This document shows positions 4,125-62,525 of a DNA stretch of 64,000 nucleotides, piece by piece. The position numbers and the translations under genes are program-made. The stretch is taken from the IMG/VR virus record IMGVR_UViG_3300030688_000021, one strand, 5' to 3'. The number at the start of each line of letters is the position of its first letter. Position 1 is the stretch's first letter. The notes under the pieces were generated by a model that ran no database searches, was not told the origin of the DNA, and saw only the letters and a list, made by a program, of their open reading frames with translations. Origin of the DNA: an uncultured virus (IMG/VR IMGVR_UViG_3300030688_000021) (taxonomy: Duplodnaviria > Heunggongvirae > Uroviricota > Caudoviricetes).

Positions 4125-4181
4125 TTTACAGACCAACTAGCTGGTGGTAGGATGCTCTTCAGAACAACGCTGAGGAGCATC
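4125..4181 (+). promoter_or_regulatory. Sigma70-type promoter, GCTGAGGAG motif, RBS-sequestering hairpin
   Basis: TTTACA 4125, 17 bp, TAGGAT 4148; motif 4169; inverted repeat 4151-4162/4170-4181. Confidence 0.8.
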
Positions 4182-5106: not shown

Positions 5107-5151
5107 TTTACGGCCCTTTCAAAACACGTTAGGGTCGTTCTTGCTGAGGAG
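5107..5151 (+). promoter_or_regulatory. Sigma70-type promoter plus GCTGAGGAG motif not adjacent to a start codon
   Basis: TTTACG 5107, 17 bp, TAGGGT 5130; motif 5143; next ATG at 5229 has its own RBS. Confidence 0.7.
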
Positions 5152-5501: not shown

Positions 5502-5564
5502 CCTGCAGGGACCTGGGCCTAATCGCCTGGGTCCTTCCAGCCTGACTGCTGAGGAGTCAAACCA

Positions 5565-6039: not shown

Positions 6040-6498
6040 GAAGGTCACCCACTCCCCCGGGTAAGCCACACAACGTCGCCGGGTCCGTTGGGACCTTCTG
6101 AAGACCCGGCACCTTTAGCTAGCCTGTGAAGCACCATGAGCGCAGGTCGTAATACCCAAAGGTCCTCGCAGCGATCGATCCAGAGAATGGTGACACGGGA
6201 GCGGGTCGATACTCCTGGGGTTGGGAAGCGCGGCGGAAAACTCCAGCCAAAGCTTCGCAGGCTTGCTAAAGGTTTGATTAGGCTCGGGCTCCTGGCTTGC
6301 CAGAATGACCTGAACCTGAGGATGGTTGAAGTGCAGCTCGCGATAGCTTAGACCTTCAACCGTCCTCGAAGATGCCGAGGTCCAGTGCGGGTTGCGTTCT
6401 CCAATTGCGGGGGTAGGCCAAGCGGGGACTGGGCATAGGGTCACCTCCTTAAGTGTGAGGCGGGCGGAGCGCGGTGCCGCAGGCTTGAGGGAGGATCC

Positions 6499-6801
6499 AT
6501 GAAGACCGAGTTGCAACAGGCCCTGGCTTTGCTGGAGCTGCCCGAGACTGTAACCCTCGAGGACCTGAAGACCCGGTGGCGAGACCTGGCCAAGGAACTG
6601 CATCCGGATGCTGGCGGTGATCCAGTGAAATTTGGGGAATTCAACCGGGCCTACAAAATTGTGGTGGAACACGCTGGGGCCCCAGTTGATTGTCCTGAGT
6701 GCGGCGGGTCCGGGCGTGTCCCCATGGGAGGTCGAGTCAGCTTCTCGGCGATCATGATCATGTGTCCGGCGTGCAACGGCTCCTGTAAGGTCCCGCGCTG
6801 A
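6499..6801 (+). CDS. J-domain protein with DnaJ-like zinc finger
   Basis: LAKELHPDAGGD; CPECGGSG and CPACNGSC. Confidence 0.85.
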   Translation: MKTELQQALALLELPETVTLEDLKTRWRDLAKELHPDAGGDPVKFGEFNRAYKIVVEHAGAPVDCPECGGSGRVPMGGRVSFSAIMIMCPACNGSCKVPR

Positions 6802-9562: not shown

Positions 9563-9595
9563 TGCTATAATCTCCTTAGTTCAACGCTGAGGAGA
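9563..9595 (+). promoter_or_regulatory. Extended -10 promoter, GCTGAGGAG motif, RBS hairpin
   Basis: TGcTATAAT 9563-9571; motif 9586; inverted repeat 9571-9579/9587-9595. Confidence 0.7.
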
Positions 9596-9815: not shown

Positions 9816-9891
9816 TTTACACGCCCACTAGGCGTGATAAGATGCTCTCATGAATGACGCACACAGCGCCAACCCTGCTGAGGAGAGCATC
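9816..9891 (+). promoter_or_regulatory. Sigma70-type promoter plus GCTGAGGAG motif
   Basis: TTTACA 9816, 16 bp, TAAGAT 9838; motif 9877; 9841-9849 complementary to 9883-9891. Confidence 0.75.
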
Positions 9892-10284
9892 ATGACCGAC
9901 GTCAAGACCATCAACACCAAGACCCGCGACGCCGCCACCGCCCAGCTGCGCAAGCTCGGTATCGCAAAAGAATTCTATAACAAGTTCATCACCCACCACG
10001 AGGGCGGTTTCAGCGTCGAGCTCGGTGCCGCGAAGAAGTTCCTCGAGCCGCCCAAGACCACCAAAACCAAGACCGCCAAAGCCAAGCGCGACGTGAAGCT
10101 AGATGGCGTCACCCGCCGTGAGGACACTGTCTCTGCCCGTGCTCGTCAGCTGATCCTCGAGGGCTTGGCCAACAAGGACGTCTTCGCCAAGCTGAAGGAA
10201 GAGTTCAACCTTCCTGAGACGAAGAAGTCCTACCCGGCCTGGTATCGCTCTGAGCTGCGCCGCCAGGGCAAACTCCCCAGCTGA
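9892..10284 (+). CDS. Basic protein with C-terminal WYR domain
   Basis: RBS then ATG 9892; SARARQLILEG..PAWYRSELRRQGKL. Confidence 0.85.
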   Translation: MTDVKTINTKTRDAATAQLRKLGIAKEFYNKFITHHEGGFSVELGAAKKFLEPPKTTKTKTAKAKRDVKLDGVTRREDTVSARARQLILEGLANKDVFAKLKEEFNLPETKKSYPAWYRSELRRQGKLPS

Positions 10285-10348
10285 GCTGCTGAAGAGCCCT
10301 TGGCCGGAAGGCTGAGGGTTCAGGTCTTTTGACGAGGAGCATCGAGCT

Positions 10349-10613: not shown

Positions 10614-10662
10614 TGTACTTCTTCTTGGCCGTGCCGTAGGATGTCCTTGTCTTGCTGAGGAG
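10614..10662 (+). promoter_or_regulatory. Sigma70-type promoter plus GCTGAGGAG motif
   Basis: TGTACT 10614, 17 bp, TAGGAT 10637; motif 10654. Confidence 0.7.
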
Positions 10663-11584: not shown

Positions 11585-11971
11585 ATGGCCAAGTACATCG
11601 TCACTGACAAGAACGGCCTCGTATTTGAGGTTGAGGCCGACACGTGCTACGAGCTTGGAGGAGACCTCACGCTGCTCGCCGGCGGCGGCCAGCTGGCCGC
11701 CCAGTGGTCCATCGGGATGTGGGTTTCAGTGGTCAAGACCGCGAAGGTCAAGTCCTCTGACGCGGTCATCAAGCTCTCGGTCGCAGAGATCCAATCTGGC
11801 CTGACGCGCGTCAGAGCTGCTGAAAACTTGGTACCGCAGCTTCCGTCTGGCCACGACGGTCGTAACACTTGGCTCTTGAACTATGGGATTGGGTTTCAAT
11901 CTGTCGCTCTTCGAACCAGTCGAGGCGTCAAGTTCGACTTCGAAACTCTTAGCGCGGAGACCATGTCGTGA
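11585..11971 (+). CDS. Hypothetical protein
   Basis: RBS aggagga; coupled to thyX. Confidence 0.7.
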   Translation: MAKYIVTDKNGLVFEVEADTCYELGGDLTLLAGGGQLAAQWSIGMWVSVVKTAKVKSSDAVIKLSVAEIQSGLTRVRAAENLVPQLPSGHDGRNTWLLNYGIGFQSVALRTSRGVKFDFETLSAETMS

Positions 11972-12582
11972 AGATCATCAATCCATCGACCGAGATCCTG
12001 ACTGCCACGCCTGACTTGGAGCGGACCATTGAGCGGGCTGGCCGAGTTTGCTACAAGTCAGAGGACCGGATCACCGGGGACTCGGCCGCGAAGCTCATTG
12101 CTCGTCTTGCCGAGAGCAAGCACGAGTCAGTCTTGGAGCACGGGTCGATCACTGTCCTGTTCGTCTGCGATCGCGGGGTCTCTCACGAACTAGTCCGTCA
12201 CCGGATCGCCAGTTTCTCGCAGGAGAGCACCAGGTACTGCAACTATGGCAAGGACAAGTTCGGCAACGAGATCACTCTGATCCAACCTCTACTTGGCCCA
12301 GACCCGTCCTTGGAACGAGAGCAAGCTTGGCTTGACGCCTGCCGGGCTGCAGAGTCGGCGTATTTTGAGCTTCTTGACATGGGCGCCTCCCCACAGGAAG
12401 CCAGGTCTGTGCTGCCCAACAGCCTCAAGACCGAGGTAATCATGACCGCCAATCCGCGTGAGTGGCGTCACGTCTTCAAACTGCGTTGCGCAGAAACTGC
12501 CCACCCACAAATGCGTGAACTGATGATCCCGCTCCGCGAAAAGTTCCAGCAATTTTGGCCGGCGCTGTTCAGCGACCTTTAG
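11968..12582 (+). CDS. thyX: FAD-dependent thymidylate synthase
   Basis: HESVLEH, RGVSHELVRHRIASFSQESTRY, EARSVLPN. Confidence 0.97.
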   Translation: MKIINPSTEILTATPDLERTIERAGRVCYKSEDRITGDSAAKLIARLAESKHESVLEHGSITVLFVCDRGVSHELVRHRIASFSQESTRYCNYGKDKFGNEITLIQPLLGPDPSLEREQAWLDACRAAESAYFELLDMGASPQEARSVLPNSLKTEVIMTANPREWRHVFKLRCAETAHPQMRELMIPLREKFQQFWPALFSDL

Positions 12583-19251: not shown

Positions 19252-19304
19252 TTTACAACGGTGGGTAGGAGCACTAAGATGTTTCTACTAACGCCGCTGA
19301 GGAG
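19252..19304 (+). promoter_or_regulatory. Sigma70-type promoter plus GCTGAGGAG motif
   Basis: TTTACA 19252, 17 bp, TAAGAT 19275; motif 19296. Confidence 0.8.
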
Positions 19305-20385: not shown

Positions 20386-20437
20386 TTTACGGGCATCGTC
20401 GTCCGTGCTATGATGCCTAATCTGCCTTGCTGAGGAA
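20386..20437 (+). promoter_or_regulatory. Sigma70-type promoter plus GCTGAGGAA variant
   Basis: TTTACG 20386, 17 bp, TATGAT 20409; motif 20429. Confidence 0.75.
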
Positions 20438-21588: not shown

Positions 21589-21608
21589 TCTGATTGAGGA
21601 TGTGGACC

Positions 21609-22427
21609 ATGGTTCAACGACGTGAAAAGACCCGGGATGACCGGGACTACGACAGCACACAGCTCCGTGAGGCTGGACATGGCAAGACGTTGGGGCGAGA
21701 CTACTCGGCGCACTTTTTCCGCTGGAGTTTCGCCCGGCGGTTCATCGGCCTGAAGGACAACGTCATCGAGGTCGGCTGCGGCGAGGATCGGCCCTTGAGC
21801 AAGATCTTGACGGGCGGGGCAGCTCCTCACGTGAACACTTACGTGGGCGTGGACATCAACAAGCTCAAGACGTCGAACAGCCAGCGCCTGACCTTCATTG
21901 GCGAGTTCAACTTCGTCGAGCGCTGGAAGGAAGCTCTGAAGCTGCGTCCTGAGGGCTACGACGTGGTCGTGAACTACGAGGTCATCGAGCACATGGCCGT
22001 CGAACACGGTGCCGCGATGCTGAAGGCCTTCTTCCAAGTGCTGAAGCCAGGTGGTAAGCTGTTGCTGTCGACACCTTGCTACGACGGCAAGCGCCACGCG
22101 GCAAACCATATTCATGAATTCACGGTGCCTGAGCTGCAGGGCTACATCGAGAAGGCCGGCTTCGTGATTGAGCAGCGCTACGGCACTTTCATGGACATCA
22201 AGCACATCGGGAAGCCAGCCAGCCAGCTCGACCCTGAGCTGACCAAGGCAATCCTGAAGGTCCACAAGGAGCTGGAGTCGTATTACGACAACGACGCCCT
22301 GAGCTGCCTGTTCGCGCCAATCTACCCGAACCAGGCCCGTAATAACCTGTGGGTCTGCACCAAGCCTGCCGACGGCAAGCCTGCGAAGTCGGCCAAGAAA
22401 ACCACCGTCAAAGGAGCGCCCTGGTAA
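21609..22427 (+). CDS. Class I SAM-dependent methyltransferase
   Basis: VIEVGCG, YVGVDI, YDVVVNYEVIEH, LKPGGKLLLSTP, HIHEF. Confidence 0.92.
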   Translation: MVQRREKTRDDRDYDSTQLREAGHGKTLGRDYSAHFFRWSFARRFIGLKDNVIEVGCGEDRPLSKILTGGAAPHVNTYVGVDINKLKTSNSQRLTFIGEFNFVERWKEALKLRPEGYDVVVNYEVIEHMAVEHGAAMLKAFFQVLKPGGKLLLSTPCYDGKRHAANHIHEFTVPELQGYIEKAGFVIEQRYGTFMDIKHIGKPASQLDPELTKAILKVHKELESYYDNDALSCLFAPIYPNQARNNLWVCTKPADGKPAKSAKKTTVKGAPW

Positions 22428-22942
22428 TGGAAACTGTCCCCCCTTTCACTCGACCGCTGGTGCCTGATCACGAGCTTCGCGACGTCCGTGAGTTCATGCT
22501 GAAGTTCGGCCAGCTGGTCCACAACGTCCCTGGGCATCTCACTAAGCGCAAGCTGGGTGAGCGCGAGGTCTTCATGCAAGAAGAACTTAATGAGTTCAAG
22601 GAAGCCGCCTCCAAGCAGGATCTGGCCGGCATGGCCGACGCCCTCGTCGACCTGTGCTACGTACTTAAAGGCACGGCTATTATGCTGGGCCTGCCGTGGG
22701 AGGCGCTGTGGGCTGATGTCCATCGGGCCAACATGTCCAAGGTCAAGGGGCTGACTCACCGAGGCCATCTGGTGGACGCCAAGAAGCCTGAGGGCTGGAT
22801 TGGGCCCAAGACCTGGGAGCTTCTTGAGGAGTTCGGCTACGTCCAAGCCAGCTGGTGCACTCCTGAGTGGTCAGCCCACCGCGACGAGTCAAAGTGCCGC
22901 GACGACGAGATCCATCAGGAGGCGTCCCATGGCTCCGTTTGA
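22427..22942 (+). CDS. MazG-like (all-alpha) dNTP pyrophosphohydrolase
   Basis: EELNE, ADALVDLCYV..G, VHRANMSK, KPEGW..P. Confidence 0.9.
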   Translation: METVPPFTRPLVPDHELRDVREFMLKFGQLVHNVPGHLTKRKLGEREVFMQEELNEFKEAASKQDLAGMADALVDLCYVLKGTAIMLGLPWEALWADVHRANMSKVKGLTHRGHLVDAKKPEGWIGPKTWELLEEFGYVQASWCTPEWSAHRDESKCRDDEIHQEASHGSV

Positions 22943-23861
22943 TCGTCATTCGTGCCGGCTCACAATTTTCGAGGGTCCCGATGGAAGTGGAAAGACCACG
23001 GCGGCCAAGTCTTACGCGCGATTAAACAACGCCAAGTACGTGCACTTCGGACCGCTTGCCAAAATCACCAAGGGATTGGCCCGCCTGTACGTCGAGGCCA
23101 TGATGCCGGCGCTGCTCGGGTATCAGGACGTCGTCTTCGACCGCTGCTGGTTGAGCGAGGTGCCGTATGGCCTCGCCTTCCGTAACGGCGAAGACCGCCT
23201 GGGTGACGACCAGCGACGGATGCTCGAGCGCTTGGCTCTTCGATGCGGCGCCGTCGTGGTGAAGTGCTTACCGCCGTGGTCCACTGTGCGCGGTAATTAC
23301 CTCAGCAGGAAGGAGATCGAATACCTCGAAAACGAGGATCAGCTCATGTTGGTCTACGGGCAGTACCAAGCCATGGCGACAGCGCTTCCCGTCTATAACT
23401 TTGACTACACCGCGCATGCGTCTGGTGTTCCAGTCGTTAACTCGCTGCGCAGTCAAAGCCATTCTGTGTCAGTCGCCTCAGCCGGCAACGCACTGGCCAA
23501 AATTGTGCTCGTGGGCGAGAATTTCGCCGAACCTTGCGAGCATGGTCCGTGGTACCAATGGCCGTTCGCATCGTTCACCGGCTCTGGCTGCAGCCAGTGG
23601 CTAACTCAGCAGCTTCACGCAGCCGGGATCGGAGAGAACCAGCTGTGCTGGGTCAATGCCGATCAAAATCTCGAAGAATTCTTCGAGAAGTCGACGAGTC
23701 TAAGCTCCACGGTCTTCGCGCTTGGCGGCACTGCTAGTGGGGTCTTAGATCGTCTAGGGCAGTGCCACGTTCGTCAATCGCATCCACAGTATTGGAAGCG
23801 GTTCTGGTCTGCCGAGCCCTATCCTCTCATTGGCGCCATCAAGGAGGTCCTCAATGCTTAA
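22929..23861 (+). CDS. dNMP kinase fused to uracil-DNA-glycosylase-like domain
   Basis: IFEGPDGSGKTT and FDR..SE.PYG; C-terminal LVGE, VNA, FALG..A, HPQY. Confidence 0.8.
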   Translation: MAPFDRHSCRLTIFEGPDGSGKTTAAKSYARLNNAKYVHFGPLAKITKGLARLYVEAMMPALLGYQDVVFDRCWLSEVPYGLAFRNGEDRLGDDQRRMLERLALRCGAVVVKCLPPWSTVRGNYLSRKEIEYLENEDQLMLVYGQYQAMATALPVYNFDYTAHASGVPVVNSLRSQSHSVSVASAGNALAKIVLVGENFAEPCEHGPWYQWPFASFTGSGCSQWLTQQLHAAGIGENQLCWVNADQNLEEFFEKSTSLSSTVFALGGTASGVLDRLGQCHVRQSHPQYWKRFWSAEPYPLIGAIKEVLNA

Positions 23862-24669
23862 AGAAGCCGCTCCGCTGTCGAACGTCTGGGTTAAGACCCT
23901 GGCTGACATTATCGTCAACGGCCACCCGGTGGCTCCTCGCGGCCAGCGCACCTTGGAGATCCCCCAACATACCGTGTTGGTTGACATGCTCCACCCAGTG
24001 TTGCTGGTCAAGGAGCGAAAGCTCCAGTATCGGTTTATGGCGGCCGAGGCCCACTGGATCTTGTCTGGTGACAACCGGGTGGAGACCATCGCCCCGTTCA
24101 ACAAGAACATCGGCCGTTTCAGTGACAACGGCCAGACGTTCGACGGAGCCTATGGTCCTCGGATCCAGGCTCAACTTGACTACGTGGTCGAGAAGCTGTT
24201 GGAGGATCCAGACACGCGCCAGGCTGTCATGGCTATCTGGACACCGAACCCCGAGCCTTCGAAGGACATCCCCTGCACGGTGGCTTTTTCGTTCATGGTC
24301 CGTGGTTCGAAGCTGAATGTCCACGGCTTCATGCGTTCCTCGGACGCATGGTTGGGGCTTCCGTATGACGCCTTCAACTTCAGCATGCTTGGCGCTCTGG
24401 TCTGCGACAGCTTGAACCAGCGCCGGACTGACAAGCTGTCTCCAGGTACGCTCTTCTTGACGCTTGCGAGCAGTCACCTCTACGAGCAGCATTGGGCCGA
24501 CGCCGAGAAGATCATCGATCAGTCTTTTTGGGATTCATACTCAGATCCTGTGCCCTCAAATTACTATGAGGGTCTTGGCCTGACGCTCTATCTGCTCGAT
24601 GGGCTGAAGCACACGACTCCTGGGCATCAGGCTCGGTGGTGGGGGGCGAAAGATGCGGCCGTCTCGTGA
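23854..24669 (+). CDS. Thymidylate synthase-fold enzyme, predicted dCMP (hydroxy)methyltransferase
   Basis: GAYGPR, TRQA, DIPCT, MRSSDAWLGLPYD, SSHLY. Confidence 0.88.
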   Translation: MLKEAAPLSNVWVKTLADIIVNGHPVAPRGQRTLEIPQHTVLVDMLHPVLLVKERKLQYRFMAAEAHWILSGDNRVETIAPFNKNIGRFSDNGQTFDGAYGPRIQAQLDYVVEKLLEDPDTRQAVMAIWTPNPEPSKDIPCTVAFSFMVRGSKLNVHGFMRSSDAWLGLPYDAFNFSMLGALVCDSLNQRRTDKLSPGTLFLTLASSHLYEQHWADAEKIIDQSFWDSYSDPVPSNYYEGLGLTLYLLDGLKHTTPGHQARWWGAKDAAVS

Positions 24670-25147
24670 CGATTGGGCTCTGGAGCTGGTCAGGGCCACG
24701 GCCAAGCGCTCAACATGCCTGCGCCGTCAGGTGGGCTGCGTGCTGCTAAGCGCACGTGGCCACGTGTTGGCCACCGGATACAACGGGGTTGCGGCTGGGT
24801 TGCCCCACTGCAATGAGGTCACCAAGATAACCACTGGGCCATGTGGTGGCAAGGTCTGGGGCCACGCTTGCTCAGGGGCGCACTCGGCCAGTGGTACGAA
24901 CTTGGATGGCTGCCAGGCAATCCACGCAGAGCAGAACGCCCTGTTGCAGTGCAAGGACGTTTACGAGATCGACACTTGCTACGTGTCAGCCAGTCCTTGC
25001 ATGACCTGCGTGAAACTGCTTCTGAACACTGGATGCACGAGGATCGTGTTCATCGACGAGTACCCCCACAAGGAAGCCGGCACCTTGTGGACACAGAACC
25101 GCGGTGCCTCGGGCTGGGTCCTTGATGGTGGAAAATTGCCGTTCTAG
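24653..25147 (+). CDS. dCMP deaminase
   Basis: RSTC.RRQVG, TGYNG, HAEQNAL, SPCMTC. Confidence 0.95.
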   Translation: MRPSRDDWALELVRATAKRSTCLRRQVGCVLLSARGHVLATGYNGVAAGLPHCNEVTKITTGPCGGKVWGHACSGAHSASGTNLDGCQAIHAEQNALLQCKDVYEIDTCYVSASPCMTCVKLLLNTGCTRIVFIDEYPHKEAGTLWTQNRGASGWVLDGGKLPF

Positions 25148-25159
25148 TGAAATTATGTA

Positions 25160-25214
25160 TTTACAGCTTCTCAGCAGCGCACTAAGATGCTTCTATCAAC
25201 GCTGCTGAGGAGCT
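25160..25214 (+). promoter_or_regulatory. Sigma70-type promoter, GCTGAGGAG motif, 15-bp RBS-sequestering inverted repeat
   Basis: TTTACA 25160, 17 bp, TAAGAT 25183; motif 25204; arms 25165-25179/25200-25214. Confidence 0.85.
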
Positions 25215-47158: not shown

Positions 47159-47845
47159 TCATAGTAGTTCCAGTACACAAGAATTTTTTGTAAGTTTCAG
47201 AACCTTAAATTTGGACCCTTTATCCAAAAGGATTTCATTTTTCGTTCTGTTCTTTACTTCTCCGTCAAGGGGGATTGCCTTTGCCCCTTTTGGTAGCTGA
47301 ATAGTCATCCAATGAGTCAAAGAAGAACCCGTAACACTAGATTTATTTGTCGTAGTAGACATGAACCCCGCGTCACTCACCTCCCCATTTTTTGCTTGGG
47401 CGACGATCTTTGACCACGCTTCATTGTCAACGCCACGATAAACAGTCATGTCTTTCTGAAGGCTGGCCTTAGAAAAAGCATCGTCAAGAGATGAAATGGT
47501 TTGTTTCAAATGTTTTGAATTTCGGATCGGTGTCCCGGACGAGTATTTGCCTTTTTCCACGGACGTGCCATTGCGCAAATAGTCATTGATTGGATAAGAC
47601 CCGGACAGCGTGTATGTCTCCAGCGCTTGCTTATTGGATTTAGACAATTCATTTTTTGTAGTGGTTTTCTGTTCTGACGGTTTTGAGGCTTGGGTTAGCG
47701 GAGTGGTAATCTTAGATTTTGAACTTAGCCGGCCACCTGCGCCAGCTATCACTTTCCCGACTCCGTTCACCAACACATGCGAGCCTGTCATGGTGATCCA
47801 GCGCTCAGAGTCATCAGTAGTGTGGACGTGGATGTGGGTAGTCAT
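47159..47845 (-). CDS. ADP-ribosyltransferase (R-S-E clade, VIP2/C3-like)
   Basis: YT..Y.IN.YLR, VYRG, GFMSTT, NEILL..G..F. Confidence 0.85.
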   Translation of the reverse strand: MTTHIHVHTTDDSERWITMTGSHVLVNGVGKVIAGAGGRLSSKSKITTPLTQASKPSEQKTTTKNELSKSNKQALETYTLSGSYPINDYLRNGTSVEKGKYSSGTPIRNSKHLKQTISSLDDAFSKASLQKDMTVYRGVDNEAWSKIVAQAKNGEVSDAGFMSTTTNKSSVTGSSLTHWMTIQLPKGAKAIPLDGEVKNRTKNEILLDKGSKFKVLKLTKNSCVLELL

Positions 47846-52594: not shown

Positions 52595-53016
52595 GTGGTC
52601 TCCTTGTGGTTTGAGAATGCCCTGAAGTCTCCACTATACCACGAATTGATATCGTCTGTAAACACGATTGTTGGACGGCCGGAAGCCCTTCCCTGCCCGG
52701 TTCTGGCTTAGTTTTGTGAAAATAGCTCTGTGGTTCATGTGGCCGGTCCTCTTTCATGGCGGTGAATTTGGGAGCGCCAGGGCCAAGCCCAAAGAATTGT
52801 GGTCTTTGACCACAAAACTAAGCTGCTACAAGCTACAGGGTTTCTCTATTTTCCTAGAAAAGGAAAGTAAAGATGGTAATTTAGATAGATATAACCGTCC
52901 TTAGTAGGGTAATCTTAGAAGTACAAAGTGCTTGCTGTAGCGCACCGTGCACCGGGCTCAGCCCAAAGCCCCACAATCTTAAAAACTTCATACCATTGCC
53001 GCCAAGAATTTTTCAG

Positions 53017-53045
53017 TTTACCCTGCCGAGAACCCATGATAGTAT
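53017..53045 (+). promoter_or_regulatory. Sigma70-type promoter
   Basis: TTTACC 53017, 17 bp, TAGTAT 53040. Confidence 0.6.
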
Positions 53046-53073: not shown

Positions 53074-53646
53074 ATGCCACACGGTCGTTGTAAACCCCCA
53101 GAAAATGTTCTGGCCAAAGCAAGAATGGCTAGGCATAACAAAAAGAACGGTTTTGTATCCAAAGACCAACCATTGGTCCAGCCGTTCTTCAACTTCGACG
53201 ATCTTGGTGCATTCCCAATAGAAACTGAGTCTGCAGCTAAAATACTAAACGATTATTTTGCGGGTCTTAGCGGAAGCCCTGATCCCGCCATCCGAACTGT
53301 GGTCGAGGCGTTTAGATACTTGGCATCTGAACTGGTCGAGACTCGCCTTACGCTACTGGCGGTGGCCAGAAAAAAGTCCACAAACACCGGCGTCTCTGAA
53401 ATGTGGGCTCGTCGCCGAGACGCCGAGATCTTCAAGATTAATTCCTCCACAAAAGGGCGCTTCGAGCTACAAGGTTGGAAGGCCTTGCTTGAATATACCG
53501 GGCTCCAAGAAAAGTACTTGCGAAACAAGTTTTGTAACGGCAAGGGCGTCTTTCAACCGACAATCTTCCGTGGCAAAGATTGCACCGAACCCGAGCGGAT
53601 GCGGATTGAGCGGCCCAGTCAGGTTAAGCCCAAGAAGGCTCTCTAA
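53074..53646 (+). CDS. Hypothetical basic protein, lower GC
   Basis: RBS ggag before ATG 53074. Confidence 0.7.
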   Translation: MPHGRCKPPENVLAKARMARHNKKNGFVSKDQPLVQPFFNFDDLGAFPIETESAAKILNDYFAGLSGSPDPAIRTVVEAFRYLASELVETRLTLLAVARKKSTNTGVSEMWARRRDAEIFKINSSTKGRFELQGWKALLEYTGLQEKYLRNKFCNGKGVFQPTIFRGKDCTEPERMRIERPSQVKPKKAL

Positions 53647-53689
53647 ATTTCTGTGTACATAGACCTTCTCTTAAGGCCTTATCTACCCT

Positions 53690-53826
53690 TGCCGGCGGGC
53701 CCCACGTTGCTCGTCACCAGGTTGCAGTACCTGGCCTCGGCACCGTTCTCCTCAGCAAGGAACGCGGAGCCCGTCGGCACCTAAGACAGAGCTGAGGCTG
53801 TCAAGGGCGGCTGAGCTGAGCAGCCG
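53690..53826 (+). ncRNA. Candidate structured RNA/leader upstream of primase
   Basis: Closing stem 53690-53700/53769-53779, internal hairpins, CTCCTCAGC at 53748-53756, two hairpins with AGCTGAG(G) loops. Confidence 0.6.
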
Positions 53827-53848
53827 AACTCGAGAACGGAATGATCAT

Positions 53849-55954
53849 ATGCCCCCACGTAAACGCTCTACCGCTACACCTGCCGCCTCGTCTGAGGCCT
53901 ATCGTCTGGCCTTGTTGAAGCTTGAGACCTCAGGCCTTGACCATGACGACTTTCGTCTGTTGAAGCTAGAAGCCATCGAAAACTCTACGACCTGCTTCGC
54001 TCACTTCAATCCTGTAGCTGGGCTGAAGATCCCGTACCTTGACCCATGGGACCCCACAAAGCAGCTTTCGTTCCTCCCTAAGTGGCCGGTGTTCTATCGC
54101 CTCAGGTATCTGAAGGATCACGTGGGCTTCGAACAGGCCGGCGGCGGTAAGGTGACCAGGTACGTCCAAGAGCCGAACACCGGGGTCTGCGCCTATTTTC
54201 CCCAGAACGCCACCAGGCCTTGGGCCGAAGTCCTTAGTGATTGGCGAGAACCTCTCTTGATCACTGAGGGTGAGCTCAAGGCGGCCAAGGCCTGTCGAGA
54301 GGGATTTGCCACCATCGGTCTTGGTGGTGTGTTCAACTTCCGCTCCACAAAGGAAGGCGTGCCTTTCATCCGAGAGCTTGAGCGCGTGGTTTGGGCCAGA
54401 CGAGCGGTGTACCTCGTCTTTGACTCTGACTTCCGCAACAACGAGCACGTCGTGCAAGCCATTAACATGCTGGCCGAAGAGCTCATGGATCGTGGGGCTC
54501 TGCCCTTCTACGTTGCCCTCCCAGATGTGTACGAGGAGGAAGACAAAAAGACCGGTCTTGACGACTTCCTCATGGCCAACTCAAAGGCAGACCTTGCGCT
54601 GCTGCTTCACCAGGCTCAACCAATGACCATGGCCAAGGGCCTTTGGGCGTTGAACCAGCAGGTCGTCTACGTCCGAGACCCTGGCATGGTGGTCGTTAAG
54701 AAGACTGGCCAAAAAACCTCGCCCGACGCCTTTAAGAACCATTCATACTCGACCCAAACCTGCCACGAGTACACGTTCGGCCCCGATGGCAGTCCTAAGC
54801 TGACGAAGAAGTCGGCGTCGGCCAGTTGGCTCAAGTGGGAGTTCCGCGAAGAGGCGATTAAGCTGACCTACGCCCCAGGCAGGGAGATGTTCTGCCAGAA
54901 TGAGCACGACGACCGCTGCTACAATACCTGGAAGGGTTGGGGCTGTGAGCCTAAGAAAGGGGACGTGAAGCCCTTCCTTAAGCTCGTTGACCACCTGTTC
55001 ACAGGAGCTGAGACCGAGCTGAAACGCCATTTCCTACGGTGGCTGGCCTATCCTTTGAAGTACCCGGGAATTAAGATGTTCAGCAGCTTCGTCATCCATG
55101 GCAAGGTGCATGGAACCGGCAAGTCCTTGTTGGGTGCCACGATGAGGAAGATCTACGGCACGAATTTTGCGAAGATCAATCAGAAGGACCTTGAGCGTGA
55201 CTACAACGACTGGGCCGAGAACAAGCAGTTTGTGCTAGGCGAAGAGATCACTGGCTCAAACAAGCGGAGCGAGGCTGACGCCCTCAAGGACCTGATCACC
55301 CAGACCGAGATGCGGGTCAATGGGAAATACGTGCCGATCTATACGATCCCAGACGTCATCAACTACCTGTACACCTCCAACCATCCTGACGCGTTCTTCC
55401 TTGAAGACGACGACCGACGCTTCAACGTCCACGAGGTTATCGTCGGCCCCATGGGCGAGGAATTCTACATCGACTATATGATGTGGCTGGATGGCGAGGG
55501 TCCTGGGGCTCTGTTCGATTATTTCATGAAGCTGGACCTCGGTGACTTCAACCCGACAGCTCCGGCCTTCAAGTCCGCCGCTAAAGAGCGTATGATCATG
55601 GACGGGAAGTCAGACCTTGGGGCTTGGGTCCACGAGCTCTTGGCCGACCCTGACAGCCTGTTGCGGGTTGGAGAGATCAAGCTTACCAAGGATCTGTACA
55701 CCAACAAAGAGCTGCTTGACCTCTATGACCCGCTGGGGAAGACGAAGGTCTCAGCTCAAGGCATGGGGAACAACCTGAAGAAGGCTGGAGCTAGGCAGAT
55801 CCTTGACGGAAAGCCAATCAGGGTCGGAGACGTGCAAGACCGGTTCTACGCAGTTCGGAACGTAGGTCGCTGGGCTGAGGCCACGGCTGCCGAGGTCAAG
55901 GCTCACTTAGCGCCAACGGCCGGGGGCAAGGCTGGGAAGAAAGGGAAGTACTGA
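53849..55954 (+). CDS. Primase-helicase (Toprim DUF3854-like plus SF3-type NTPase)
   Basis: ITEGELKA, FDSD, GLDDFL; GKVHGTGKS, GEE, TSN, DDRR. Confidence 0.92.
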   Translation: MPPRKRSTATPAASSEAYRLALLKLETSGLDHDDFRLLKLEAIENSTTCFAHFNPVAGLKIPYLDPWDPTKQLSFLPKWPVFYRLRYLKDHVGFEQAGGGKVTRYVQEPNTGVCAYFPQNATRPWAEVLSDWREPLLITEGELKAAKACREGFATIGLGGVFNFRSTKEGVPFIRELERVVWARRAVYLVFDSDFRNNEHVVQAINMLAEELMDRGALPFYVALPDVYEEEDKKTGLDDFLMANSKADLALLLHQAQPMTMAKGLWALNQQVVYVRDPGMVVVKKTGQKTSPDAFKNHSYSTQTCHEYTFGPDGSPKLTKKSASASWLKWEFREEAIKLTYAPGREMFCQNEHDDRCYNTWKGWGCEPKKGDVKPFLKLVDHLFTGAETELKRHFLRWLAYPLKYPGIKMFSSFVIHGKVHGTGKSLLGATMRKIYGTNFAKINQKDLERDYNDWAENKQFVLGEEITGSNKRSEADALKDLITQTEMRVNGKYVPIYTIPDVINYLYTSNHPDAFFLEDDDRRFNVHEVIVGPMGEEFYIDYMMWLDGEGPGALFDYFMKLDLGDFNPTAPAFKSAAKERMIMDGKSDLGAWVHELLADPDSLLRVGEIKLTKDLYTNKELLDLYDPLGKTKVSAQGMGNNLKKAGARQILDGKPIRVGDVQDRFYAVRNVGRWAEATAAEVKAHLAPTAGGKAGKKGKY

Positions 55955-56819: not shown

Positions 56820-56876
56820 TTTACAGACCTTGGTCGGCAAGCTAAGATCAAGGTTATGAAATTCCTTGCTGAGGAG
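56820..56876 (+). promoter_or_regulatory. Sigma70-type promoter plus TTCCTTGCTGAGGAG
   Basis: TTTACA 56820, 17 bp, TAAGAT 56843; motif 56868. Confidence 0.8.
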
Positions 56877-61304: not shown

Positions 61305-62525
61305 ATGGTTACGCTCAAGGCATACCGCTATCGCTTGTATCCAAGCGCCGAACAGGAAGCCCTGTTTCGGCAGACGGTCGGCTCGTGCCGGTTCGTCTAC
61401 AATCTTTGCCTTGAGCAACGTCGCCTGGAATGGCATCGCAGCAATCCGCGACGCCTGACCGCCTATGACCAGATTAAGGAACTCCCGGCGCTCAAGGATG
61501 AAGCGCCCTGGCTGCGTGACGCTCCCAATCACCCGCTTCAGCAAGCGGTCGTCGATCTGGAAAAGGCGTTCAGGAATTTCTTCGACGGTCGCGCCAGCTT
61601 CCCGAAATTCCGCAAACGTGGTGACCGCGACAGCTTCCGCTATCCCGATCCGAAGCAATTCAAAATCACGGCGGAGCGGGTTTTCCTGCCCAAGGCCGGG
61701 TGGGTGGATTGGACCCAGCATCGCCCGATGGAAGGCAAGCCGAAAACGGCCACGGTCTGCCGTGAGGCGGATTGCTGGCATGTCTCGATCCAATGCGAGA
61801 TCGAGGCGGCGGATCCACTGCCTAATCTCGGCCCTGCCGTGGGAATCGACCTGGGAATTGCCAAGCCACTCGTCCTTTCGACCGGCGAATTGGTCATGCT
61901 GCCGCGCACCAGCGAGAAGGAGCGGCGCAAGCTGGCAACCTTGCAACAGCGGTTGGCGCGGCGGGACAAAGGCTCCCAGAACCGGCGGAAGGCCAAGATG
62001 GCCGTTGCCCGGTTTCAGGCGAAATTGACGCGGCGGCGCAAGGATGCCGCCCACAAGGCGACGACGACAATTGCCAAAAACCACGGCCTTATCGTCGTCG
62101 AGGATCTGAAGGTGCGCAACATGACGGCCAGCGCGGCGGGAACCGTCGAGGAACCGGGCCGCAATGTCCGGGCCAAGGCAGGTCTCAACCGCTCCATGCT
62201 GGATGTCGCGCCTTCGCAAATCCGCCAAATGCTGGAATACAAGGCGGCTTGGCATGGCTCCCGGCTTGTCGCTGTGCCTGCCGCCTACACCAGCCAGCGA
62301 TGCAGCGTCTGCGGCCACGTCCACAAGGATAACAGGCGGACGCAAGCCGAATTCCTGTGTCTGGAATGCGGCCACGCTGAAAACGCCGACACCAACGCGG
62401 CGAAGAATATTCTCAGTCTTGGACTGAAAACCGGAGGACTTCCGGGGATGGCCTGTGAATCGAACCGCGTTAGCGGTCGGAAACAGGAAAAGCGGGCCGT
62501 GAGGCACCGAAGCTCGGCCCTTTAG
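61305..62525 (+). CDS. tnpB: TnpB RNA-guided nuclease
   Basis: YRYRLYP, GIDLG, VEDL, TSQRCSVCG..CLECG, NADTNAA. Confidence 0.96.
   Translation: MVTLKAYRYRLYPSAEQEALFRQTVGSCRFVYNLCLEQRRLEWHRSNPRRLTAYDQIKELPALKDEAPWLRDAPNHPLQQAVVDLEKAFRNFFDGRASFPKFRKRGDRDSFRYPDPKQFKITAERVFLPKAGWVDWTQHRPMEGKPKTATVCREADCWHVSIQCEIEAADPLPNLGPAVGIDLGIAKPLVLSTGELVMLPRTSEKERRKLATLQQRLARRDKGSQNRRKAKMAVARFQAKLTRRRKDAAHKATTTIAKNHGLIVVEDLKVRNMTASAAGTVEEPGRNVRAKAGLNRSMLDVAPSQIRQMLEYKAAWHGSRLVAVPAAYTSQRCSVCGHVHKDNRRTQAEFLCLECGHAENADTNAAKNILSLGLKTGGLPGMACESNRVSGRKQEKRAVRHRSSAL

Follow-up and report, generated by a model that had tools for sequence, protein, structure and literature searches.

The C4 RNA of phages P1 and P7 is approximately 77 nt long and contains three stems, P1–P3 (PMC5320573). 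According to the accessible part of that account, RNase P makes its cut in the C4 precursor at the 5′ end of P1, ribosome-binding sites are occluded by a conserved loop, and specificity comes from a variable one (PMC5320573). The CI RNA of phage P4 is described, in the accessible portion of its source, as being processed from an untranslated leader and pairing with a downstream segment, seqC, and it blocks the phage's own replication genes (PMC4825925). Sar, OOP, PreS, VpdS, PAK_P4as15 and STnc6030 are also phage-encoded regulators of translation that act by base pairing, and the accessible sections of the 2025 review that covers such phage sRNAs hold no example from a lytic phage of a repressor with many targets that acts on a repeated early-leader motif (PMC12197685).

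Here we describe a predicted RNA in the leader of a phage primase gene. We found no description of it in the literature. The accessible parts of PMC12360218, PMC10914365 and PMC9414467 hold nothing on a primase-leader RNA, and our motif, its domains and three sample identifiers were unmatched in the readable supplements of the Fremin catalogue (PMC10690425). The RNA family is apparently undescribed so far, and it may be an unnamed entry of that catalogue.

The element upstream of the primase

The window, a 64,000-nt stretch of DNA from an uncultured virus (IMG/VR IMGVR_UViG_3300030688_000021), represents most of a tailed-phage genome. Its + arm encodes a ligase, ThyX (11968–12582), DNA polymerase A, a helicase and nucleotide enzymes, and its − arm encodes terminase, portal, capsid and tail sheath. 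A cluster at 21594–25147 contains genes for a methyltransferase, an NTP pyrophosphohydrolase, a kinase, a thymidylate-synthase-like protein and a dCMP deaminase, which together with ThyX suggests a modified DNA base. The early arm also carries an IS605-family TnpB (Cas12f-like) gene (61305–62525), and an ADP-ribosyltransferase-family gene (47159–47845, − strand) adjoins the head morphogenesis gene in the head module. The divergent gap between the terminase and the early arm (52795–52945) holds repeated GCTAC/GTAGC words, and in many relatives it holds TGTAGC runs and a CTAAGT..TTGATT box; this gap is possibly a replication origin or a packaging site. The features around the primase gene are as follows.

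53017–53045, + strand: weak sigma-70-like promoter TTTACC-17-TAGTAT, found by eye, below the scan threshold
53074–53646, + strand: upstream ORF, syntenic in many relatives and found in 23 of 38 carrier records
from 53654, + strand: second, degenerate promoter candidate starting TGTACA, found by eye, below the scan threshold
53691–53782, + strand: predicted small RNA (covariance model 42.6 bits, E 9e-5, with this sequence in the training set)
53691–53700 with 53769–53778, + strand: closing stem P1, first pair G-C (family covariation)
53717–53734, + strand: inner ccagg/cctgg hairpin, variable in the family (sequence; family covariation)
within 53691–53782, + strand: seed hairpin, then an unpaired 3′ tail ACC(U) (covariance model)
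53743–53762, + strand: antisense segment, the core plus flanks that lengthen the leader pairing (complement lengths)
53750–53758, + strand: core CCUCAGCAA, invariant or near-invariant columns of alignment A2 (57 sequences)
53785–53802, + strand: predicted cis target hairpin 1, GCTGAGG in the loop (family stem statistics)
53808–53826, + strand: predicted cis target hairpin 2, GCTGAG in the loop (family site counts)
53832–53839, + strand: second cis segment GAGAACGG, next to the ribosome-binding region of the primase, complementary to 53743–53750
53849–55954, + strand: primase-helicase (DUF3854 + DUF5906), 701 aa, the cis-regulated gene in the proposed model

A reading of the sequence alone had placed a stem here (arms 53690–53700 and 53769–53779), and every sequence and coordinate that it gave for the element was correct on recheck against the window, as were the positions of + strand hairpins at 53785–53802, 53808–53826 and 5543–5559. 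In the minimum-energy fold of the element the CCU is paired with AGG, leaving CAGCA as the only open bases. Single-genome statistics are weak: the fold z-score is modest (−2.0 for 53685–53830 and −1.0 for 53640–53870), and the 14 complements of at least 9 nt to the element are unexceptional, 675 of 12,795 sampled 25-nt windows having at least 12. GCTGAGG occurs 36 times in the window against 14.7 expected, a count reached in none of 100 shuffles, and GCTGAGGAG occurs ten times on the + strand and once on the − strand, the sole − copy being the element. The case for the RNA rests mainly on leader position and on the relatives. No Rfam 15 family was matched in the window at the gathering score; matches to ssNA-helicase (E 0.083) and s2m, both sub-threshold and on the − strand, were rejected, the weak ssNA-helicase match falling in the divergent gap.

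The promoter scan found no promoter at the RNA of the window, which has no consensus promoter there, and no intrinsic terminator, a feature of interest because P4 CI causes premature transcription termination, was found on the + strand between 52700 and 54100. The promoter at 53017–53045 could supply the RNA by read-through. A 155-nt contig identical to 53701–53855 (depth 4.4) was present in one of three metatranscriptome contig sets, of which small shares were covered; it spans the RNA and leader with strand and ends undefined and is a weak hint of expression.

A conserved RNA family and its comparison with C4 and CI

Primase relatives were drawn from annotated phages, viral contigs, metagenomes and genome contigs, and included 80 of the 318 from one viral-contig search, 29 genome-contig loci and 3 loci from a metagenome scan with a single protein. 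A helix-plus-core screen yielded 60 distinct RNAs, 57 of which were aligned (A2) and used to build a covariance model. The model gave 56 matches in 95 chosen sources, one in each and all on the primase strand, 5 of them outside the training set, and the RNA lay within ~700 nt 5′ of the primase in the 55 matches with a mapped primase. It missed locus L063, a training member, and L019, and it matched none of the loci whose primase is less than ~45% identical. Among the matches listed from two DNA pattern scans of viral contigs, which were mostly chance, no member lay beyond the primase clade; as negative sets, 1 of 80 and 5 of 79 of these listed loci matched the model, all known members. The family may be spread more widely than the primase clade.

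The sequence-only reading had proposed looking for covariation in the region upstream of the primase, and this revealed a conserved structure with compensatory changes. Pairing in the P1 closing stem reaches 94.5%, two-sided changes occur at all 12 pairs, and its covariation score is 0.66 compared with 0.19 when shuffled and at most 0.11 when slid, values that are biased in favour of the stem because a helix search chose the stems and the alignment was made to fit the structure, with the G-C first pair imposed. The inner helices are ~80% paired, P2 being highly variable, and the median length is 88 nt. The unpaired N-C-C tail, partly a selection criterion, is present in 50 of 59, and the helix score at the RNA was attained at 16 of 1,080 random positions (18 loci). 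An Rfam search of 15 loci returned nothing but a tRNA. We conclude that this is a real, conserved phage RNA family. Two loci have variant RNAs before the primase: L066 (~9830–9945) keeps the outline of stem and tail with another core, which is matched at the primase start, and L113 (~6400–6560) has, behind a good promoter, a longer element that is self-complementary.

Carriers of the RNA include the cultured phages AXL3 and PW916. The AXL3 copy is at L009:752–847, which corresponds to about 46794–46699 of MT536174 (minus strand). In AXL3, early-arm ORFs (five annotated) are preceded by six + strand sites at leader-like spacing; one other site is inside the polymerase gene, and the structural half has a single site, inside a tail gene. 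AXL3 is virulent and did not form stable lysogens, pseudolysogeny is possible, and the latent period is ~2.5 h, according to the accessible portion of its report (PMC7504290); PW916 is called lytic in the title of its report (PMC9414467). Searches of the 38 carrier records, 31 of which are at least 90% complete, for tyrosine integrase, HTH_3, ParA-type ATPase and resolvase found none of them, and controls were positive. The carrier phages look like a widespread and strictly lytic group.

Like C4 (RF01695), the RNA has a closing stem and two inner hairpins at a median of 88 nt, and a near-invariant core complementary to ribosome-binding sites alongside a variable second segment. Its anatomy, with the N-C-C tail, would be compatible with cleavage by RNase P, as in C4, at the 5′ end of P1. 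The RNA differs from C4 in that none of the 38 carrier records exceeds the 45-bit gathering score of RF01695; two weak matches (17.2 and 12.4 bits) sit away from the RNA, and searches of the window region and of L049 with a cut-off of E 10 gave no RF01695 match. The core sequence is different, and the predicted targets, the primase with about ten early leaders, go beyond one operon. Where C4 precedes an antirepressor operon and serves temperate immunity, the downstream gene here is a primase, and the 38 records hold no lysogeny genes of the kinds sought. As in P4 CI, there is a complementary target downstream in the same predicted transcript, ahead of replication genes. The upstream seqA of P4 is absent from entries with a matched promoter: a sigma-70-like promoter (looser pattern) was matched 5′ of the RNA in 46 of 66 entries, the window not among them, and there is no room for seqA because P1 starts ~5–8 nt past the −10 box where one is found. 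In further contrast, the present RNA has many predicted trans targets, and P4 CI serves lysogenic immunity whereas AXL3, in the accessible text on it, could not form stable lysogens (PMC7504290). By analogy, the RNA would act in the manner of C4 and CI, and it is not a member of the Rfam C4 family.

Predicted target sites in cis and in trans

Within the primase leader, CCGTTCTC (53743–53750) is complementary to GAGAACGG (53832–53839), just 5′ of the primase ATG at 53849. In the family, exactly two GCTGAG-like sites lie within 115 nt downstream of the RNA at 50 of 64 loci, and three at 2 loci. The first is flanked by a stem of at least 4 bp in 45 of 61 loci, compared with 21% of 1,649 background GCTGAG occurrences. 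The longest complement to the second segment averages 7.3 nt in a phage's own leader versus 5.9 in the leaders of other phages and 6.0 in random windows of the same genome (p 5e-5, 16 primase-cluster representatives), an uneven effect that reaches p < 0.05 individually in 5 of the 16, the window (p ~0.3) not among them. A duplex-energy test of the cis sites was set aside as composition-confounded, since an upstream control favoured a phage's own sequence as well. In L028, L037 and L052, an extra ORF of ~150 codons, which by eye looks like a homing-endonuclease insertion, lies between the RNA leader and the primase.

Among one-mismatch variants of the cis sites (56 loci), GCTGGG is the sole clear enrichment, with 11 observed and 2.06 expected; the next variants stand at 3 versus 1.5 and 3 versus 2.1, and the other wobble variant, GTTGAG, was not seen. 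GCTGGG keeps a G·U pair with the U of the RNA, which favours RNA pairing over a DNA operator. This strand-specific wobble tolerance is the best single argument for RNA–RNA pairing, and it disfavours the idea, raised in the sequence-only reading as grounds for rejection, that the element is just a − strand copy of a DNA operator.

Elsewhere in the window, 11 + strand sites are perfectly complementary to the element over 9–15 nt:

2066–2079, + strand: predicted trans target, 14 nt, leader of ORF 2086 (GTG)
4169–4177, + strand: predicted trans target, 9 nt, leader of ORF 4187 (DUF2786/DUF7168)
5140–5151, + strand: 12-nt site carrying GCTGAG in tandem, no start codon next to it
5547–5556, + strand: predicted trans target, 10 nt, inside hairpin loop 5543–5559, leader of ORF 5565
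9586–9595, + strand: predicted trans target, 10 nt, leader of ORF 9602
9876–9886, + strand: predicted trans target, 11 nt, before ATG 9892, with an in-frame ATG also at 9850
10651–10662, + strand: predicted trans target, 12 nt, leader of ORF 10670, ahead of the ThyX, DNA polymerase and helicase genes
19296–19304, + strand: predicted trans target, 9 nt, leader of ORF 19313
20425–20436, + strand: predicted trans target, 12 nt, leader of ORF 20442
25203–25212, + strand: predicted trans target, 10 nt, leader of ORF 25219
56862–56876, + strand: predicted trans target, 15 nt, leader of ORF 56883 (Imm5-like)

The complement lengths claimed at the outset hold, both for the five longest sites (15 nt at 56862, 14 at 2066, 12 at 5140, 10651 and 20425) and for the others, which were said to reach at least 9 nt and reach 11 (9876), 10 (5547, 9586, 25203) or 9 (4169, 19296). 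A start codon follows GCTGAGG by 6–11 nt at 10 of the 11 sites, 5140 being the exception, and a −10-like TAnnnT box lies 11–19 nt 5′ of 8 of the 11. A candidate bipartite site at 10311/10330 was dropped, TGACGAG being found 13 times on the + strand of the window. GCTGAGG is also conserved shortly 3′ of the primase in relatives (L013:8140, L014:12858, L048:12579, L055:12137), often without an adjacent start codon, and in L013 and L014 a second segment there is complementary to the phage's own RNA too; the site at 5140 may be of the same kind.

Across the relatives, the leader motif occurs together with the RNA. Leader-position GCTGAGG was counted at 110 sites in 54 RNA-bearing loci (958 kb), 42 of which have at least one, versus 1 site in 23 RNA-negative loci (371 kb), where no alternative leader motif was found de novo except in L066, which is cis-only. 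The share of GCTGAGG occurrences in leader position is 19% (142 of 733), compared with at most 8% for any one-mismatch word. Flanking bases were compared with the RNA of the same phage, using whole records where available. Of the three bases that follow the core, 1.6–1.8 agree with the RNA of the phage itself versus 1.0–1.2 when permuted (p 0.0002–0.0018 over four clustering levels with 8–21 primase-cluster representatives), the three that precede the core agree as well (p 0.0002–0.004), and positions +4 to +6 show no match.

Counted over all 36 phages with sites, without de-replication, position +1 is G at 15 of 44 sites where the RNA predicts G versus 6 of 98 where it predicts A; where the RNA predicts AC, 16 of 33 sites read AC and one AG, and where it predicts AG, 27 of 46 read AG. 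The AC flank class requires only two changes on the primase tree (quick tree, 30 rows), so that few events underlie part of the trans signal. The leaders of many G-class phages hold a Shine–Dalgarno-like AG instead of matching their own RNA (5 of 5 in L070); Shine–Dalgarno selection is drawing many sites to AG. The core itself is swapped in three cases, counted in favour of the model. In L078 it is changed to CTCTCGGC, and GCCGAGAG occurs in cis and in one trans leader; L066 has a different core matched at its primase start, a cis-only case; and L063 has a variant core, its one canonical leader counting against the model. The expectation that the loop would co-vary with the repeated ribosome-binding motif is thus borne out for the core-adjacent bases and for the matched core swap in L078. 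The RNA is conserved, its structure covaries, and it co-occurs and co-varies with its targets.

Proposed mechanism and rival explanations

From these patterns we infer transcription, a discrete transcript, RNase P processing, repression and a purpose, and we judge the following scheme probable. A host sigma-70 promoter would drive a single transcription unit made up of the RNA, its leader and the primase. The ~90-nt RNA, folded into a long closing stem with its N-C-C tail left unpaired, would be freed from the leader in stable form, probably through an RNase P cut at the 5′ G and trimming of the 3′ end, by analogy with the accessible account of C4 (PMC5320573). Its open CAGCA loop would touch GCUG in the target loops first, with pairing then spreading over GCUGAGG(AG). 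In cis, the RNA would bind the two looped GCUGAG sites and the second segment at the primase start, lowering primase-helicase synthesis, and this control of replication genes is analogous to that described for P4 CI in the accessible part of PMC4825925. In trans, it would cover the Shine–Dalgarno sequence of about ten short early leaders. Through its accumulation the RNA would provide a negative-feedback timer for switching off early translation, and it could also silence an incoming related phage, possibly giving superinfection immunity. The comparative tests support the sequence-only reading of a phage RNA that may control the primase in cis and occlude ribosome-binding sites in trans, and its term "global switch" is plausible.

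A broader version is tentative and, in our view, rather doubtful: the RNA, matured by RNase P and carrying an invariant seed, would be an RNA-only master repressor that replaces the protein repressor throughout a broad clade with no detectable integrase or CI-type protein, silencing the primase and the heads of early operons and allowing both a timed or carrier (pseudolysogenic) state and immunity to superinfection across the clade.

The same pairing could instead activate or stabilise messages, by opening leader hairpins such as 5543–5559 or by relieving a pre-primase attenuator. The cis targets do sit in hairpin loops, and IsrK, a structural homologue of P4 SeqA, offers a precedent in that it activates downstream translation, as stated in the accessible text of PMC4825925. 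Yet the pairing covers GAGG/AGGAG itself and ends 6–11 nt before the start codon at 10 of the 11 window sites, and most leaders are, by eye, ~25 nt long with little structure to open, which makes activation unlikely. Less probable again is that GCTGAGG is a protein-binding site, as a DNA operator or in mRNA, perhaps for the product of ORF 53074–53646, with the RNA being cis-only or an inverted copy of the site. Sites just 3′ of −10 boxes are where operators often lie, a protein site would co-vary within a genome too, and the small upstream protein is syntenic and has a helix-rich C-terminal module (beta-beta-alpha-alpha-beta). We take this module to resemble NUMOD1-type DNA-binding modules, which Pfam did not confirm; the upstream ORF has no Pfam match, no PDB fold match at E ≤0.001, and Atlas matches of at most 0.76. 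The family is small and fast-diverging, the copies in the window and L002 being 35% identical where their primases are 98% identical. Against a protein reader, the orientation of the motif is fixed (antisense in the RNA, sense in the leaders), target variation is wobble-biased, and a second, variable segment is complementary as well. HTH_3 is absent from the 38 records. Of the 31 near-complete carrier records, 14 gave no match to the upstream protein, and several of these 14 nevertheless contain leader sites. With its family detected in 23 of the 38 records and no fold identified for it, the protein is unlikely to be an obligatory reader of the motif.

We give least credence to a cis-only primase attenuator in phages whose leader motif is simply a shared Shine–Dalgarno habit without trans regulation. 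GAGG/AGGAG is indeed a Shine–Dalgarno sequence, and the raw complement count in the window is unremarkable, but the GCT 5′ of it is unneeded for ribosome binding and one-mismatch words fall well short of the leader share of GCTGAGG given above. Moreover, the leaders of AC-class phages mostly carry AC or AT, which are not optimal for Shine–Dalgarno pairing, and the motif hardly occurs in loci that lack the RNA.

Under the repressor reading that we prefer, a known design would be scaled up. In the accessible accounts of C4 and CI, each RNA governs a single operon of a temperate phage (PMC5320573, PMC4825925), and here the design would extend to about ten dispersed early genes of phages with a strictly lytic appearance. 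This bears on how early genes may be shut off without a repressor in lytic phages that use the host RNA polymerase. A short seed and leader pair could also serve as a compact translation switch. The model is directly testable, as two carriers, AXL3 and PW916, are cultured, and the long latency and possible pseudolysogeny of AXL3, described in the accessible portion of its report (PMC7504290), matter for the therapeutic use of such phages.
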